Below, piece by piece: positions 13,678 through 19,182 of a stretch of 64,000 nt of DNA. How positions within the stretch are numbered: position 1 is the stretch's first letter; every line of letters begins with the position of its first letter. The translations under genes were made by a program, and so were the position numbers. Source of the stretch: SAR202 cluster bacterium Io17-Chloro-G2 (GTDB lineage: Bacteria > Chloroflexota > Dehalococcoidia > Lucifugimonadales > UBA3495); contig MUCP01000016.1 of the NCBI GenBank assembly GCA_002816875.1, forward strand, positions 125-64,124. The letters are read 5' to 3'. The notes under the pieces are model-generated. The model had not been told where the DNA came from and ran no database searches. It worked only from the letters and a program-made list of their open reading frames with translations.

Positions 13678-13990
13678 TGCGATGCACCCTCCGGTCAAGC
13701 CCGTTCCGGCCTGGCCTTGTTTCCTTACAGCAAGAAAGCGGGTGGAACCCGCTTTCAAATGAGAGGGACTATGTGACGCAAGTATAGCATCGCGGATGGG
13801 CGGTTTCAAGTGGCCACGCCTAGTTCCAGGCGTGGACCCGCATGGGCTTGGGGGTAGCGAGACGATGAAGCCGGGGTGCTGGAAATAGGTTCGTGGAAAA
13901 CGAGAGGGTCGATAGGGGGCTAACTTTTTGATACCTTCAGTTGGTTCTTCCTACTGATAGCGAAACGGGCAAAACCACACGCCCGGATAT

Positions 13991-14941
13991 TCACCACCAT
14001 ATCTTCCCTTTGGACTCCTTGGCCAACTCATCGTAATCTTTGGTCCAAAGGCTGGTGCTGAGGTATTTCCACCCACCGTCGGCCAGTAGGCAGACGATGT
14101 TACCTTCTTCCATTCTTTCCGCTTGGCGCATGGCGGCGTACACCACCGATCCCGAGGAGATACCAGCGAAGATGCCTTCTTGGAGCAGCAATTCCTTGGT
14201 AGTCCGGAAGGCGTCCATACTGCCGACCAAAATCCTGGAATCCAGCATGTCCAGGTCCAGGATGGGAGGAATGAATCCTTGGTCCAGGTCCCGTAACCCA
14301 GATATGAAATCGTCGGGCTCCGGCGCAACCGCCACGATTTTGATGGCTGGATTGTGCTCCTTCAACCGGCGACCTACGCCCATGAGGGTTCCGCCGGTGC
14401 CCAGGCCGGCGACGAACATAGTTGTGTCGGGCATGGTATCGATTATCTCTTGACCGGTGGTTTCGTAGTGAGCGCCAGGATTGCCTTCGTTGCCGTATTG
14501 GTAGGGCATGAAGTAGTCATGGGGGTGTTTTTCGACCATTTCCTGGGCCACCACGATGGACCCGTTGGTGCCCAGTGTCCCGTCGGAATTGAAAATCTCG
14601 GCGCCGTAGGCCTGCAGCAATTGGGCCCGCTCCACGCTGACGTTCTCCGGCATGACCACGGCCACTTTGTAGCCTTTTAACCTGCCCACCATGGCCAATG
14701 ATATGCCGGTGTTCCCGCTGGTGGGCTCCAGGATGGTCCGGTTGGCGCTGATCTCACCATTGCGCTCGGCCTGATCGATCATTTTGAGGGCGATGCGGTC
14801 TTTTACGCTGCCGGTGGGGTTTTGACCCTCCAACTTGGCGAAGATGCGGACGCCCGGCTTGGGGCTCATGCGCTGCAGTTCCACCATGGGAGTGTTGCCG
14901 ATGGCCGCGAGGATCCCTTTATAAGCCAGCCTTGTCACCAT
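13991..14941 (-). CDS. cysM: PLP-dependent cysteine synthase, CysM-type (resembles the CysO-thiocarboxylate-dependent enzymes of mycobacteria)
   Basis: GNTPMV, NPTGSVKDR, EPTSGNTGISLA, GLGTGGT, and a C-terminal GGWKYLSTSLW...W tail. The subtype call is from memory of M. tuberculosis CysM. Confidence 0.85.
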   Translation of the reverse strand: MVTRLAYKGILAAIGNTPMVELQRMSPKPGVRIFAKLEGQNPTGSVKDRIALKMIDQAERNGEISANRTILEPTSGNTGISLAMVGRLKGYKVAVVMPENVSVERAQLLQAYGAEIFNSDGTLGTNGSIVVAQEMVEKHPHDYFMPYQYGNEGNPGAHYETTGQEIIDTMPDTTMFVAGLGTGGTLMGVGRRLKEHNPAIKIVAVAPEPDDFISGLRDLDQGFIPPILDLDMLDSRILVGSMDAFRTTKELLLQEGIFAGISSGSVVYAAMRQAERMEEGNIVCLLADGGWKYLSTSLWTKDYDELAKESKGKIWW

Positions 14942-15140
14942 GATTTCGTGTATTTACTCACCAAGATTGATGCGTCCCCCGGTTGGCGCGTAAAAAAGGA
15001 ACGCGAGTCTGAGGGTCACGCGGTTATTCGATTAGGTCCGAGATCTCTCGATTGGATGCTGGTTATGGCGCAAAAATTCCCGCCAACCTGGCTCCAATCA
15101 CTGAACAAGGGCATCCCTAAGGGAACGTCGCGGCGTGGGG

Positions 15141-15989
15141 CTAGTCTGAACCTACCCCTACCCCGGCTGCCTCTGGCTCCGTCAATCCGCAGAAAATCTC
15201 GTAATCGATGAGCTCGGTCACCGTGGGGTTGTCGCCGCACAGCGGACATGCCGGGTTTCTCTTGAGTTTTACCTCCCGGAAATTCATGCTCAACGCGTCG
15301 ATGAGCAACAGACGTGAGCTCAGGCTCTCGCCGATGCCCAAAATCAGTTTCAGCGCCTCGGTGGCCTGGATGCTACCCACCAGACCCGTGAGGGCGCCCA
15401 AAACGCCGGCTTCGGCGCAGTTGGGGACCATTCCCGGAGGAGGCGGCGATGGGAACAAGCACCGGTAGCATCCCTGGCCGGGGATAAAGACGGTGGCTTG
15501 GCCGTCGAAGATCAAAATGCTGCCGTCCACCAGGGGCTTGCCCGAAAGATAGGCGGCGTCATTGACCAGGTAGCGGGTGGCGAAGTTGTCGGCCCCGTTG
15601 ATCACCAGGTCGTATTGGCCGATGATGTCCATGGCGTTGCTGGATTCCAGCCGGTCGCCGTGCATCACAACGTTTACGTCGGGATTGTAGGAATTGATGT
15701 TGTCTCTGGCGGATTCCAACTTTGGCCGGCCTATGTCGGCGGTGTGGTGCAAGATCTGGCGCTGCAGGTTGGAGATTTCCACCACATCGAAGTCGACGAT
15801 GCCGATGGTGCCCACTCCTGCCAGGGCCAGGTAGATGGCTGATGGAGAACCAAGGCCGCCGGCCCCCACTATCAGGGCTTTGGCGCCCATCAGGTTCCTC
15901 TGGCCGTTGCTGCCCACATCGCCCATGATGATATGGCGGCTGTACCGCTTGACTTGTTCTGGTGTTAATTTGATGGGTTGCTCAGCCAT
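15141..15989 (-). CDS. moeB: ThiF/MoeB-family E1-like adenylyltransferase (no rhodanese domain)
   Basis: RYSRHIIM...VGAGGLGSP..., CxxC pairs CYRC and CPLC; AGGAGG RBS. Confidence 0.85.
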   Translation of the reverse strand: MAEQPIKLTPEQVKRYSRHIIMGDVGSNGQRNLMGAKALIVGAGGLGSPSAIYLALAGVGTIGIVDFDVVEISNLQRQILHHTADIGRPKLESARDNINSYNPDVNVVMHGDRLESSNAMDIIGQYDLVINGADNFATRYLVNDAAYLSGKPLVDGSILIFDGQATVFIPGQGCYRCLFPSPPPPGMVPNCAEAGVLGALTGLVGSIQATEALKLILGIGESLSSRLLLIDALSMNFREVKLKRNPACPLCGDNPTVTELIDYEIFCGLTEPEAAGVGVGSD

Positions 15990-16093
15990 GTTTCCTGTTC
16001 CTCCTAATTTACCTTTTGGCGATGCCTTTGGCGCCTTGAATATGCTGGGAGCCGCCGGCCGTTACGGTTCATATTTGGATAATCGAATCCCAT

Positions 16094-16140
16094 AAAAAAA
16101 CCCGCGCTTCCCCAAAGGAATTTCCCTGGATGGGCGCAGG
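16094..16140 (-). terminator. Intrinsic terminator inside the moeB-cysM leader (attenuator 3:4 hairpin)
   Basis: Minus strand: CCTGCGCccatCCAGGGaaattCCTTTGGggaaGCGCGGG followed by TTTTTTT. Confidence 0.65.
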
Positions 16141-16167
16141 CTGGCTACTGGTGTATTAGCCCGCTCC

Positions 16168-16221
16168 CTATGTAGGGAGACAGGTACACGCGCAGGTTGA
16201 TTCAAATGTTATCAGAGCCAT
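16168..16221 (-). CDS. Candidate Cys-rich leader peptide MALITFESTCACTCLPT
   Basis: 17 codons plus TAG, hand-translated, with 3 Cys codons within 5 positions. It lies between the promoter-like hexamers and the terminator. Confidence 0.5.
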   Translation of the reverse strand: MALITFESTCACTCLPT

Positions 16222-16231
16222 ATGTAAATTG

Positions 16232-16260
16232 AGTCTAGTCCCGGTGTAGGAAGTTGTCAA
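16232..16260 (-). promoter_or_regulatory. Sigma-70-type promoter candidate for the leader and moeB-cysM
   Basis: Minus strand: TTGACA (16260-16255), 17 nt, TAGACT (16237-16232). The leader ATG is about 10 nt downstream of the -10 element, so the transcript would be near-leaderless. Confidence 0.45.
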
Positions 16261-16508
16261 CCGCAATCGGCTACGGCAGTTGAGTATACCTAAGGGCCAT
16301 CATACCGCCGTGGCATCAAGACGAACCCGCGGCTTCGGCTATCAGCTTTGCTTTCAATTGTACGCCCAAAACCCTGAATTGGAGATGACCGTGGCGAGGG
16401 GGCCCCACGAGTGGTATCCTGGCGCGGGACTAAACCGGCGCCGCTCCAGGCGTGGAATTCTCATTGTTGAGGACCCTAATAAACGATCCAAGCCTGTAAA
16501 GAGGGAAA

Positions 16509-18005
16509 ATGGCACTTCAAAACATGGATCAGAACGCATGGCTCCCGAATCGATGGGACCATGAAGCCGATGTGGTGATCGTCGGCTTCGGCGCCGCCGG
16601 CGCTGCCGCTGCCCTAACCGTCCATGATGCCGGCGTCTCCATTCTGATGTTGGAAAAAGCCCCCGAAGGACAAGAAGGGGGAAACACCCGGGTGGCCGGC
16701 CAGGGGTACCTTAACGCCACGCCGGTGGACGACGCCATTACTTACTTCAAAGCCATGGCCGGGCCCTACGCCGTTCCCGATGAGATGATACAGGCGTGGG
16801 CTGAAGAGGGCGCCAAAAACAATGATTGGGTCAGGAGCATTGGCGGTGACCCTCAAGAGCACCAGCATCAACCGGTGGGCATAGAGTTTCCCGAGTTGCC
16901 GGGTTCCAACAGCGTTCACAAGTACCACCATGGCGAAACGACAGGGTACTCCGGAACATGGATGTTGTTTGAACGGGCGGTTAGAGAAAGGAATATTCCG
17001 GTCATGTACCAGACTCCGGGAAAGGAGTTGATCCAAAACCCTCTGACCAGGGAAATACTGGGGATCAAAGCGGAGCAGGGCGGCAGGCCCGTTTACGTGA
17101 AGGCCAAACGGGCGGTGATCTTGACCTGTGGAGGTTTTGAGAACAACCTGGAGATGATCAGAAATTATCTTCCGGGCATCCCATACTGCTATACCACCGG
17201 CACGCCGTACAACGAGGGGGACGGCGTACGAATGGGGATGGAAGTAGGGGCCGATCTGTGGCACATGAACAACTTTGCCGGCCCTTCAATGGGCTTGAAG
17301 GTCCCTGAATACCGGACGAGGTTTTCCATGATCGCCCTGCATTTCTCCAAAGAGATGCACGGCGGAATGATAGTGGTCGGGCCTGAAGGGGATAGGTTTG
17401 GCGATGAGAAATACAAGACCTCCCATGGAAAGATCAAGGTCTCAGGCCGTTGGGGACCAATGGCCGTGCCCTGCCCCATGTACATGATCGTGGACCACAC
17501 TCTGTTTTCCTCGGGTCCCATGTACGACAAAGACCCCAGCCACGCCTGGAATCCGATTGTCGATAGGTACGACTGGAGCGGCGACAACAGTGCCGAACTG
17601 GCCAAAGGCTGGATCAAGACGGCGGACACTATTCCAGACTTGGCCCGGATCATCGGCGTGGACCCATCCAACCTGGATGGGAGCGTCAGGCGTTGGAACA
17701 GCCATTGCCATGGGGAGGAAGACCAGGATTTTGGCCGGACCAAGATGCTGGCGCCTTTGAGCCAACCCCCATTCTATGCCGTTGAGCTAGCGCCTTCCAT
17801 GCTCAACACCCAGGGCGGTCCCAGACGAAACGAAAAGGCGCAGGTGGTGCGGCCAGACGGAACGCCCATTCCCCGTCTGTACAGCGCCGGGGAACTGGGG
17901 TCCATGTTCAGCTATCTATATCAGGGGACCGGCAACATTGGCGAATGTCTTTCCTTTGGACGTATCTCGGGCCGCAACGCCGCGGCGGAGAGGCCTTGGG
18001 AATAA
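16509..18005 (+). CDS. FAD-binding oxidoreductase (fumarate reductase / KstD-like flavoprotein family)
   Basis: DVVIVGFGAAGAAAAL...LEK...GGNT dinucleotide fold; C-terminal SAGELGS...GNIGECLSFGR. Confidence 0.8.
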   Translation: MALQNMDQNAWLPNRWDHEADVVIVGFGAAGAAAALTVHDAGVSILMLEKAPEGQEGGNTRVAGQGYLNATPVDDAITYFKAMAGPYAVPDEMIQAWAEEGAKNNDWVRSIGGDPQEHQHQPVGIEFPELPGSNSVHKYHHGETTGYSGTWMLFERAVRERNIPVMYQTPGKELIQNPLTREILGIKAEQGGRPVYVKAKRAVILTCGGFENNLEMIRNYLPGIPYCYTTGTPYNEGDGVRMGMEVGADLWHMNNFAGPSMGLKVPEYRTRFSMIALHFSKEMHGGMIVVGPEGDRFGDEKYKTSHGKIKVSGRWGPMAVPCPMYMIVDHTLFSSGPMYDKDPSHAWNPIVDRYDWSGDNSAELAKGWIKTADTIPDLARIIGVDPSNLDGSVRRWNSHCHGEEDQDFGRTKMLAPLSQPPFYAVELAPSMLNTQGGPRRNEKAQVVRPDGTPIPRLYSAGELGSMFSYLYQGTGNIGECLSFGRISGRNAAAERPWE

Positions 18006-18096: not shown

Positions 18097-19182
18097 CTAA
18101 GCTCGTTTGGCGATCACTTCCCGGCCAAAGTCTTGGATAAGGTCCCGGGCCGCTTGGGCGCCGGTGACCGAGATGGCGACGTTGTCGATGCCGGCGGCTT
18201 CCATCCCCTCCAGGCGTTCGATGATCTCCGGTCCGCTGCCCGTGAGGGTCTTGGCCAGGGCCTCCTGCGTGACGAAGGCCTCTTCTCCGGGTTTTAGGAA
18301 AACCATGTGCCCCCGATGAACTTCCAGATAGAGACGGTCAGCCTCCGTCCCATTTTCCCTGGCGAACTTTCTAATATAGGCGTCATACGCGCCCGAACTT
18401 TGGGGGTCAGGGCGAACCCCCAGGTCCGCTCCAGGCCCATGGTCCGCCTCCCACTGGGCGTGCAATAAGGGCAGTATGTTGGGGCCAACCTGCGCCATCA
18501 CCCGTTCAGACGCCGGCGGCTCGCCTTCCCGTAGTACGCAACCGTTGGTCAGGGCCACGGTGTAGGGCTTAGCCGTGCTCAGTCCTGCTTTCTCCGCGGC
18601 GTCGCTCATCGCGGCGAAGTCCCGCTCCAGATTTCTTCCTGCCCGGGCCGTCACCCAGCCATCGGCAAGCTCGGCGGCAGCCTCCAGCGCCCTGGGTCCA
18701 TTGGCCGCGAGATAGATCGGAATGGGGTCTTTGATATTGATGAAACTCTCCCGGTCTGCGTGCACCAACCGGATCCAACGCTCTCGTTTCCTCTCCCGAA
18801 ACAGCACGTCTTCACCGCGCAGCAAGCCCCGTACCTGCTGGGTATACTCCTTCAACCCAGCCACCGGCACCGGAGGCAATCCCATGGTGTTCCGCCCCGT
18901 GTAGCCCGTTCCCAACGCCAAGATCACGCGGCCGGGCGCCAATTTATTGATTGTCGCTATCGCCGAGGCCGTAACGGGCGCGATGCGGTTGCTGGGGATC
19001 GCCACCAGTGTTCCCAACCGAATGCGGCTGGTGTTCTGGGCGGCCAACGCCATGGTGGCGTAGACGTCGCTGTAGATCAGCTGGGAGTCGTAAAACCACG
19101 CGTGGGTGAACCCCGCCGCCTCGGCCGCTTGCACCTCCCGCCATGCGTCGATGTATGACGGAAGCGCTATCCCATAGTCCAT
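18097..19182 (-). CDS. LLM-class (luciferase-like) flavin/F420-dependent oxidoreductase
   Basis: GFTHAWFYDSQ..., LGTGYTG, and the typical LLM length and layout. Confidence 0.75.
   Translation of the reverse strand: MDYGIALPSYIDAWREVQAAEAAGFTHAWFYDSQLIYSDVYATMALAAQNTSRIRLGTLVAIPSNRIAPVTASAIATINKLAPGRVILALGTGYTGRNTMGLPPVPVAGLKEYTQQVRGLLRGEDVLFRERKRERWIRLVHADRESFINIKDPIPIYLAANGPRALEAAAELADGWVTARAGRNLERDFAAMSDAAEKAGLSTAKPYTVALTNGCVLREGEPPASERVMAQVGPNILPLLHAQWEADHGPGADLGVRPDPQSSGAYDAYIRKFARENGTEADRLYLEVHRGHMVFLKPGEEAFVTQEALAKTLTGSGPEIIERLEGMEAAGIDNVAISVTGAQAARDLIQDFGREVIAKRA

Follow-up and report, generated by a model that had tools for sequence, protein, structure and literature searches.

A predicted family of cysteine-keyed leader-peptide attenuators with a near-leaderless start in SAR202 bacteria

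Transcription attenuation through a translated leader peptide is the textbook mode of control for the operons of tryptophan, histidine, phenylalanine, leucine, threonine and isoleucine/valine. In Enterobacteria, trpL, hisL, pheL, leuL and thrL each combine an open reading frame (ORF) carrying codons of the end product with helices 1:2, 2:3 and 3:4. A predicted leader of the same plan lies upstream of moeB and cysM on the minus strand of a 64,000-nucleotide (nt) stretch of SAR202 cluster bacterium Io17-Chloro-G2 (contig MUCP01000016.1, positions 125 to 64,124); "the window" below means this whole stretch, and all leader coordinates refer to its minus strand. Beyond ORF and helices, the leader shares with the trpL/hisL type a stop codon at the boundary of regions 1 and 2 and an intrinsic terminator before the first structural gene, and with trpL the use of few regulatory codons for a rare amino acid. 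It differs from the enterobacterial leaders in the amino acid that it would sense (cysteine) and in phylum (Chloroflexota), in lacking a Shine-Dalgarno sequence, with the ATG 7-11 nt after the -10 box, and in regulatory codons that alternate (C-x-C) and are not in tandem. There is no sequence similarity to those leaders, and no Rfam leader model scores on it.

Cysteine-rich leaders have been predicted or shown in other phyla. In Actinobacteria, Cys-rich leader ORFs with no conserved terminator were first predicted before cys operons (Seliverstov et al. 2005, PMC1262725), and leaderless polycysteine small ORFs (sORFs) of mycobacteria have been described as a "Cys ribulon" (Canestrari et al. 2020, bioRxiv 10.1101/834739). 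The one mycobacterial element studied in detail, Ms5788A, works at the level of translation by unmasking a ribosome-binding site (bioRxiv 10.1101/834739). The SAR202 leader resembles these elements in being an unannotated Cys-rich sORF at the predicted transcript 5′ end of cysteine/sulfur operons, in occurring before several operons per genome and in the proposed stalling at Cys codons. It differs in that a covarying intrinsic terminator and antiterminator form its core, in phylum and in the lack of evident homology, and its copy in the window does not contain the two or more consecutive Cys codons that serve as the mycobacterial criterion.

The uORFC-8-2 motif of Rhodobacterales is a predicted ribosome-mediated transcription attenuator upstream of cysS (Brewer et al. 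2021, PMC8632094). It is alike in that its first stem contains conserved Cys codons and its terminator ends in a U run; it differs in controlling cysteinyl-tRNA synthetase, in its tandem Cys codons at positions 14-15 and in belonging to Alphaproteobacteria, whereas the genes downstream here are moeB-cysM (sir-hemD in relatives) and not cysS. For uORFC-8-2 a conserved AUG is described and a leaderless start is not noted (PMC8632094). Firmicutes perform the same task, control of cysteine/sulfur genes, through premature termination or an Rrf2-family repressor (Cys T-box, S-box responding to S-adenosylmethionine (SAM), and CymR), but these sense by binding of uncharged tRNA, by binding of SAM and by a protein, respectively, and no T-box or SAM model scores on the leader.

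Full-text literature searches found no description of a Cys leader in SAR202, Chloroflexi or Dehalococcoidia, nor of a four-segment cysteine attenuator with a covarying terminator on cysteine-synthesis genes. Of the known Cys leaders, those of mycobacteria regulate translation, and the one before cysS is a prediction. The first-pass annotation of this DNA had called Cys-codon attenuators rarely described; rare they are, but they were already known or predicted (bioRxiv 10.1101/834739; PMC8632094). The element is thus best described as a predicted cysteine-keyed leader-peptide attenuator family of SAR202 with a near-leaderless start, on at least two operons and of a mechanism class already known.

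The leader in the window most likely works by classical ribosome-mediated transcription attenuation, gauging how much Cys-tRNA(Cys) is available. Its parts and the two genes behind it are as follows, with Cys codons numbered back from the stop codon.

16255..16260, minus strand: -35 hexamer TTGACA (read from the sequence and by promoter scan)
16232..16237, minus strand: -10 hexamer TAGACT, after a 17-nt spacer from TTGACA
16168..16221, minus strand: leader ORF encoding MALITFESTCACTCLPT, 17 sense codons and TAG (sequence and ORF list)
16180..16194, minus strand: putative regulatory Cys codons TGC 16194-16192 (-8), TGT 16188-16186 (-6) and TGT 16182-16180 (-4)
16174..16184, minus strand: region 1, 5′ arm of the 1:2 hairpin, CCUG-U-CUCCCU (RNAfold)
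16158..16169, minus strand: region 2, 3′ arm of the 1:2 hairpin and 5′ strand of the predicted antiterminator, AGGGAGCGGGCU (pairing and folding)
16132..16142, minus strand: region 3, 3′ strand of the predicted antiterminator and 5′ arm of the terminator, AGCCUGCGCCC (pairing and folding)
16094..16107, minus strand: region 4, GCGCGGG and U7, terminator 3′ arm and U tract (RNAfold)
16000..16005, minus strand: Shine-Dalgarno sequence AGGAGG of moeB (sequence)
15141..15989, minus strand: moeB/thiF-type adenylyltransferase, 282 amino acids, predicted first regulated gene (Pfam ThiF 7.9e-82; NCBIfam MoeB/MoeZ-like)
13991..14941, minus strand: cysK/cysM-family cysteine synthase, a pyridoxal-phosphate enzyme of 316 amino acids, predicted second regulated gene (Pfam PALP)

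The promoter matches the consensus at 10 of 12 positions and is one of only two such sites in a promoter scan of 5 kb. The ATG of the sORF (16221-16219) follows 10 nt downstream of the -10 hexamer, and the frame then reads ATG GCT CTG ATA ACA TTT GAA TCA ACC TGC GCG TGT ACC TGT CTC CCT ACA TAG, with the stop at 16170-16168. Its Cys codons occupy positions 10, 12 and 14 in the pattern C-A-C-T-C. Region 1 overlaps the last Cys, Leu/Pro and Pro codons, and region 2 starts within the UAG, which is enclosed in the 1:2 hairpin (CTCCCT 16179-16174, loop acat, AGGGAG 16169-16164). RNAfold lengthens this hairpin by CCUG:CGGG (CCUG-U-CUCCCU / AGGGAG-CGGG) to -14.7 kcal/mol. The core 2:3 pairing joins AGGGAGCGGGC (16169-16159) to GCCTGCGCCC (16141-16132); with the flanking T:A it becomes AGGGAGCGGGCU (16169-16158) with AGCCUGCGCCC (16142-16132), 10 of 11 positions paired, including one G:U and leaving one A/G mismatch. 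The duplex energy of -17.8 kcal/mol surpasses that of 99.96% of the 11-mers from the 5.5 kb around it.

The outer stem of the terminator has nine pairs, AGCCUGCGC / GCGCGGGUU (RNAfold), seven of them G-C or G-U, while two A/G-U pairs extend into the T run. The hairpin spans 16142-16099 (-23.2 kcal/mol), and T7 lies at 16100-16094, 104 nt from the moeB ATG (15989). A simple terminator scan missed it since the loop exceeds 8 nt; folding reveals it. RNAfold of 16226-16085 gives two hairpins, with a minimum free energy (MFE) of -49.4 kcal/mol and z = -2.35 against shuffles. The promoter TTGACA-17-TAGACT, the 17-codon ORF with three Cys codons, the stop codon within CTCCCT-acat-AGGGAG, a 2:3 pairing worked out by hand and a hairpin with T7 about 100 nt before moeB had all been proposed in the first-pass annotation; all of them hold at this locus, with every coordinate given there correct, and as described below each recurs in relatives.

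The arrangement is unlikely to have arisen by chance, because the Cys count is rare, the sORF is unique in 64 kb and many species share the whole layout. In the long ORFs of the window 0.99% of codons are for Cys, and the probability of at least three Cys in 16 codons is about 5e-4. A scan of the 64 kb for sORFs with at least three Cys in their last nine codons and a T run behind returned the leader ORF as the sole hit. There is no second copy in the window: with filters off, a covariance model of the leader (see below) matches 16094-16200 only. The next match of that model, 10.1 bits inside cysM, is noise.

Conservation was followed in the moeB locus of 80 species-representative Dehalococcoidia genomes (L-numbers are locus labels). 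The first-pass annotation had suggested looking in relatives for a Cys-rich ORF followed by a terminator; a homologous leader stands before moeB in 36 of the 80 species genomes (L001-L017, L019-L035, L038, L039), and a DNA pattern scan added 55 further moeB-type leaders in metagenome contigs, nearly all in the order rrf2, leader, moeB, cysM. The leader is absent from L018, whose MoeB is 88% identical to that of the window, and from more distant loci; many distant loci that lack it have a gene for an Rrf2-family regulator directly before moeB. The covariance model, built from 37 sequences, has a single match in the window, the leader itself (78.8 bits), and elsewhere recovers all members and nothing else. 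The metagenome pattern scan returned 90 matches, 17 of which are chance (no promoter, no Cys run, no model score). A generic scan of 1.12 Mb of collected sequence for a sORF with at least three Cys near its end plus a terminator yielded 65 leaders and eight other matches.

The promoter is shared as well. Wherever a TTGAC[AT] search retrieved the promoter region of a leader, TTGACA was present with 17-18 nt spacing, and the -10 box is conserved as TAnAcT. Between the U tract and the start of moeB, relatives have a spacer of 20 to 154 nt, which holds no conserved sequence. Seven species have spacers of 20-39 nt, with little beyond the Shine-Dalgarno sequence; since this leaves no room for a promoter, moeB in those species would be transcribed only from the leader promoter through the terminator. 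The predicted terminator would serve as a checkpoint rather than close off a gene of its own. An independent small RNA gene with a separate moeB promoter was set aside in view of the short spacers. A search among RNA runs found none that contains the window; at L088:170-2717, in a relative, marine metatranscriptome contigs (runs X13-X16) run unbroken from rrf2 through leader and terminator into moeB and cysM.

Evidence that the sORF is a coding sequence comes from 92 distinct promoter-plus-leader sequences of both operon types (the second type is described below). An ATG 4-17 nt past the -10 box, in frame with and open to the TAG, is found in 88 of the 92, against 0 and 1 of 92 for the other two frames in the same test. 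Of the four exceptions, three carry a TTG in frame 7 nt downstream of the -10 box, and one (L024) is frameshifted. The N-terminal part, from the start to the Cys codons, is almost unconserved, and length is mostly 16-19 codons. The codons themselves were counted in a structural, model-based alignment of 86 distinct leaders (A2). Of the 86 sequences, 85 have Cys at codons -6 and -4. Codon -6 (TGT 62, TGC 23) lies outside all modelled helices and varies only synonymously; an invariant T-G with a free pyrimidine in third place, outside any helix, is the pattern expected if a Cys codon is under selection. At codon -4, 83 sequences have TGT and two have TGC, codon -8 is TGC in 46 of 86, and leaders contain two to four Cys codons in all.

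The TAG is invariant (86/86). Before it the peptide tail reads Pro (all four CCN codons are used), any residue and Thr (ACA 76, AAA 6 of 86), A2 columns 22-33 corresponding to window positions 16179-16168. The two C's of the Pro codon and the G of the TAG are conserved because of pairing; the ACA of the loop is not explained in this way. In some relatives (L015, L019, L143, L161) the peptide has consecutive Cys residues, CC or CCC.

The three helices were compared across 37 species aligned with MAFFT (A1) and in A2. The terminator is 87.7% paired in A1, and compensatory changes affect five of its pairs. For the antiterminator 2:3 pairing in A1 amounts to 79.3%, against 37-52% when the strands are slid, and there is one conserved internal mismatch; over the 37 and 86 sequences it is 79-81% paired against at most 61% slid. 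G-C to A-U compensatory changes occur at two positions, and in A2 four pairs comprise 12 cells changed on both sides, a cell count reached by one of 500 shuffles. Against the local background the 2:3 duplex has a median percentile of 0.3% across leaders. The 1:2 hairpin is 87.6% paired in A1; its support is conservation and not covariation, its 5′ arm doubling as the Cys-Pro coding stretch. Mean energies are -13.6 kcal/mol for 1:2, -17.0 for the 2:3 segment and -25.4 for 3:4.

The nascent transcript was modelled by folding from the G of UAG to just before the terminator 3′ arm, a state in which region 1 is masked and region 4 is not yet made. The MFE fold then pairs region 2 with region 3 in 31 of 37 moeB-type and 17 of 18 sir-type leaders (the second operon type), and at least three bases of the terminator 5′ arm are captured in 32/37 and 18/18, respectively; for region 3 at 16132-16142 this fold captures 8 of the 9 bases of that arm. 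The predicted antiterminator is mutually exclusive with both 1:2 and 3:4. Comparison across relatives thus supports the 1:2 / 2:3 / 3:4 attenuation geometry keyed to cysteine that had been suggested for this locus. Sequence and comparison establish the promoter, the Cys codons in their conserved frame, three helices that exclude one another as described, the target genes and a related leader on a second operon of sulfur assimilation; where transcription starts, whether the sORF is translated, how the ribosome would stall, the response to cysteine and any role of 1:2 in pausing are inferred.

The leader is not confined to moeB. Eighteen metagenome contigs without moeB match the pattern and score 32-58 bits over the full length of the model. 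These sir-type leaders have the promoter TTGACA-17-TAGACT, three or four Cys codons and, again, a UAG in the hairpin; their sORFs include MNRFDSTFCFCTCPPT, MESMINLFCRCTCTCPPT and MKLHPSIFCCCTCPPT, each followed by a stop. Their terminator is in a different register (GCGCCCACC...GGUGGGCG, then UUUUAUUUU), and region 3 is still complementary to region 2. The first gene behind them encodes 610-625 amino acids with two NIR_SIR/NIR_SIR_ferr domain pairs (NirA family, source label nitrite/sulfite reductase), presumably an assimilatory sulfite reductase, and the second encodes a HemD-like uroporphyrinogen-III synthase. No rrf2 is adjacent to them. Their positions are as follows.

L171:2816-2977; L172:2803-2981; L144, L099, L107, L143, L121, L135, L155 and 9 others: sir-type leaders

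Chromosome OY762444.1 has both types, moeB-type L006 and sir-type L171 (sORF MICTAVSACFCTCPPT and stop). SAR202 cluster bacterium Io17-Chloro-G9, the nearest named relative, whose MoeB is 97% identical to that of the window, carries a sir-type leader with the sORF MVAFHTLICACTCPRT and stop. That at least two sulfur/cysteine operons share the leader strengthens the link to cysteine. More divergent versions precede moeB in other Dehalococcoidia, where L049, L055, L076, L073 and L064:2228-2411 have Cys-containing sORFs (CTCT, CCC, CPC) and terminators. In L049:2232-2402 and L055:2234-2404 a GTG 7 nt after an extended -10 box opens a sORF ending ...EDCTCTRRSA and stop; in L076:2193-2410 the sORF ends ...TCTCTRRCVNTQRR and stop; and in L073:2350-2460 an ATG 6 nt after TATAAT opens MNIxNLKLNICCCRRSVEL and stop.

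The start of the sORF lies unusually close to the promoter. Over 88 leaders the mode of the -10-to-ATG spacing is 10 nt, mostly 8-11 nt in the moeB type, 7-9 nt in the sir type and 6-7 nt in the divergent L073, L049 and L055. The interval between the -10 box and the ATG is too short for a Shine-Dalgarno sequence. In predicted leaderless genes, found by prediction in Chloroflexi too, the TANNNT box usually begins some 12 nt ahead of the start codon (PMC3160421); in the leaders the -10 box starts 14-17 nt before the ATG, and the 6-7 nt of L073, L049 and L055 correspond to the canonical leaderless spacing. Judged by promoter geometry only, the leader transcript probably carries 0-4 nt before the AUG.

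The codons are placed in a way that suits stalling. Cys -4 falls within region 1 and Cys -6 comes 4 nt ahead of that region, and the UAG overlaps the first bases of region 2; the spacing of the Cys codons and UAG relative to regions 1 and 2 is invariant in A2. The mRNA channel of a ribosome extends about 11 nt from the first P-site base, and the ribosome protects about 15 nt. With Cys -4 (16182-16180) in the A site, the ribosome would reach to about 16175, so that all of region 1 (16184-16174) would be held and region 2 free. With Cys -6 (16188-16186) in the A site, the outer four pairs would be opened and the 3′ half of region 2 freed. A ribosome halted at codon -8 would leave most of region 1 exposed, which fits the weaker conservation of that codon. 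With the UAG (16170-16168) in the A site, 16169 to about 16159 would be covered, that is, nearly all of region 2. This layout of codons would follow the logic of trpL.

The proposed sequence of events is as follows. A strong, probably constitutive promoter would start an RNA with the 17-codon ORF within 0-4 nt of its 5′ end. When cysteine is plentiful, the ribosome would reach the UAG in the 1:2 hairpin and cover region 2, and after it leaves 1:2 would re-form; either way region 2 would be unavailable, the 3:4 terminator would fold and polymerase would stop at U7, about 104 nt before moeB. When charged tRNA(Cys) is scarce, the ribosome would wait with Cys codon -4 or -6 in the A site, holding region 1 in its mRNA channel, fully at codon -4 and by the outer four pairs at codon -6. 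Free region 2 would then pair with region 3 once this is made, removing the base of the terminator stem and allowing read-through into moeB-cysM. If the RNA is not translated, as on transcripts that read through from upstream, both 1:2 and 3:4 would form and transcription would stop.

Several observations weigh against this interpretation. The -10-to-ATG spacing is 2-5 nt longer than in typical leaderless genes (PMC3160421), in a leader that has no Shine-Dalgarno sequence. There are only two near-invariant Cys codons, and they are not adjacent. Conservation of the Pro codon, the final ACA and the TAG goes beyond the needs of a simple model. The 1:2 hairpin displays no compensatory change above shuffle level, and another function could in principle explain its conserved sequence. 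The RNA contigs of L088 could be read-through transcripts or DNA carry-over, and they give no depth or ends. Some members are also exceptional: in L024:2266-2413 a 2-nt deletion (a real change or an assembly error) breaks the sORF frame, L007:2313-2454 has a single Cys (TGT to AGT), and L015 and L022 have a poor U tract.

These features bear on other ways of reading the locus. The terminator and antiterminator might form a switch controlled by a protein or a ligand, with the 1:2 hairpin and its ACAUAG loop as sensor and the ORF incidental; the strong conservation of hairpin and loop without compensatory change would suit such a sensor, as would a last codon ACA and a TAG more conserved than a plain attenuator needs. 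An incidental ORF, however, would not retain its frame and a fixed ATG position 88 times in 92 when the other frames do so 0 or 1 times, nor would it hold a Cys codon outside the hairpin to synonymous change, and the divergent leaders (L049, L055, L076, L073) again have Cys runs and a terminator. Rfam adds no candidate: Rfam 15 gave 0 matches at gathering score over the whole 64-kb window, and on 15900-16600 with E up to 10 it gave chance-level matches only (E >= 2) and no riboswitch or T-box. The weak matches (a group II intron fragment on the terminator, Ms_IGR-8 and ar45) are set aside as chance. A sensor hairpin is accordingly held to be quite unlikely. Control of the promoter by the neighbouring Rrf2-family protein (CymR/IscR-like), with the hairpins and T run serving mainly as terminator or insulator of rrf2, seems very unlikely, even though nearly all relatives have rrf2 immediately before the leader, RNA contigs extend from it through the leader and lineages without the leader keep it directly before moeB. 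The leader is served by a consensus promoter of its own, located beyond the rrf2 stop, sir-type leaders have no adjacent rrf2 and in the window rrf2 is 3 kb away, and neither the Cys codons nor the 2:3 pairing would be explained. Rrf2 control and attenuation may well coexist.

A translational attenuator of the mycobacterial kind, in which a stalled ribosome would free the ribosome-binding site of moeB, has a precedent in the Cys-rich leaderless sORFs of Mycobacterium smegmatis (bioRxiv 10.1101/834739), but the G+C-rich stem and U tract are conserved and covary. A spacer that varies between 20 and 154 nt without conserved sequence makes conserved sequestration of the moeB Shine-Dalgarno sequence unlikely, and this reading is regarded as highly improbable. 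The compactness of the unit, about 130 nt with its own promoter and terminator, and the conserved peptide tail C-x-C-P-x-T would also be expected of a gene in its own right, for a small RNA or a Cys-rich micropeptide acting in trans. Yet the peptide is unconserved over its N-terminal two thirds, the unit invariably stands immediately before sulfur/cysteine genes and in the same orientation, and in several species no promoter fits behind it, so a separate gene is extremely improbable; a trans role would be an addition, not an alternative.

Attenuation by Cys-tRNA supply could also have a further layer. The tail Cys-x-Cys-Pro-x-Thr-UAG might let the nascent peptide itself act at the stop codon, by a TnaC-like arrest or slow release, within a SAR202-wide, 70S-initiated "Cys ribulon". 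This proposal, drawn from the near-invariant tail, the UAG in 86 of 86 sequences, the 0-4 nt 5′ untranslated region (UTR) and the copies on at least two operons, is a speculative one and rather unlikely to be right. If true, peptide arrest could sense free cysteine, sulfide or redox state, beyond Cys-tRNA.

The genes behind the leader in the window are for cysteine synthesis, as had been proposed, namely a MoeB/ThiF-type adenylyltransferase and a CysK/CysM-family cysteine synthase. The latter scores 355.8 bits with TIGR01136 (cysKM), above the cut-off of 344.15; the MoeB is without a rhodanese domain, and its homologues at 81-97% identity all belong to SAR202 and other Dehalococcoidia (Chloroflexota). 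The gap between moeB and cysM, 14942-15140, measures 199 nt and contains no ORF longer than 21 codons; it is narrower in many relatives, with a range of about 60-220 nt. After cysM come nusA, infB, rbfA and truB. A promoter-like site, TTGAAA-17-TATACT with an upstream TG, lies at 13781-13809 on the minus strand, between the end of cysM and the likely start of nusA; because of this site nusA probably has its own promoter, outside the regulated unit. No gene for a ThiS/MoaD-like (CysO) sulfur carrier stands beside moeB in the window or in the flanks of window-type loci, so that a CysO-thiocarboxylate route in this organism is only a guess. In three distant relatives (L067:387-659, L079:1961-2233, L080:2216-2488) a ThiS/MoaD-like domain ending in GG lies directly upstream of MoeB, apparently in frame with it, with a cysteine synthase gene before it and a second ThiS-like copy after moeB.

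Upstream, the usual gene order in relatives (L174, L081-L170) is 4HBT thioesterase, rrf2, leader, moeB, cysM, nusA. In the window, rrf2 (19810-19322, minus strand) is 3 kb off, and two genes separate it from the leader: an FAD_binding_2 oxidoreductase (16509-18005, plus strand) and a luciferase-like monooxygenase (18097-19182, minus strand). This looks like an insertion of about 3 kb. The neighbouring Rrf2-family protein scores below the cut-offs for CymR and IscR.

SAR202 is an abundant deep-ocean group noted for its sulfur metabolism. If the leader works as predicted, it would offer a testable example in a phylum where almost nothing is known about regulation at the RNA level, and the coordination of several operons by stalling at Cys codons would extend beyond Actinobacteria. 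The covariance model gives annotators a means of finding an unannotated sORF together with its leader, and the short 5′ UTR would be a useful case for how a leaderless or near-leaderless start is coupled to transcription. For the organism itself, the leader would mark the genes that a SAR202 cell treats as its cysteine supply: moeB-cysM, and the NirA-type reductase with hemD.

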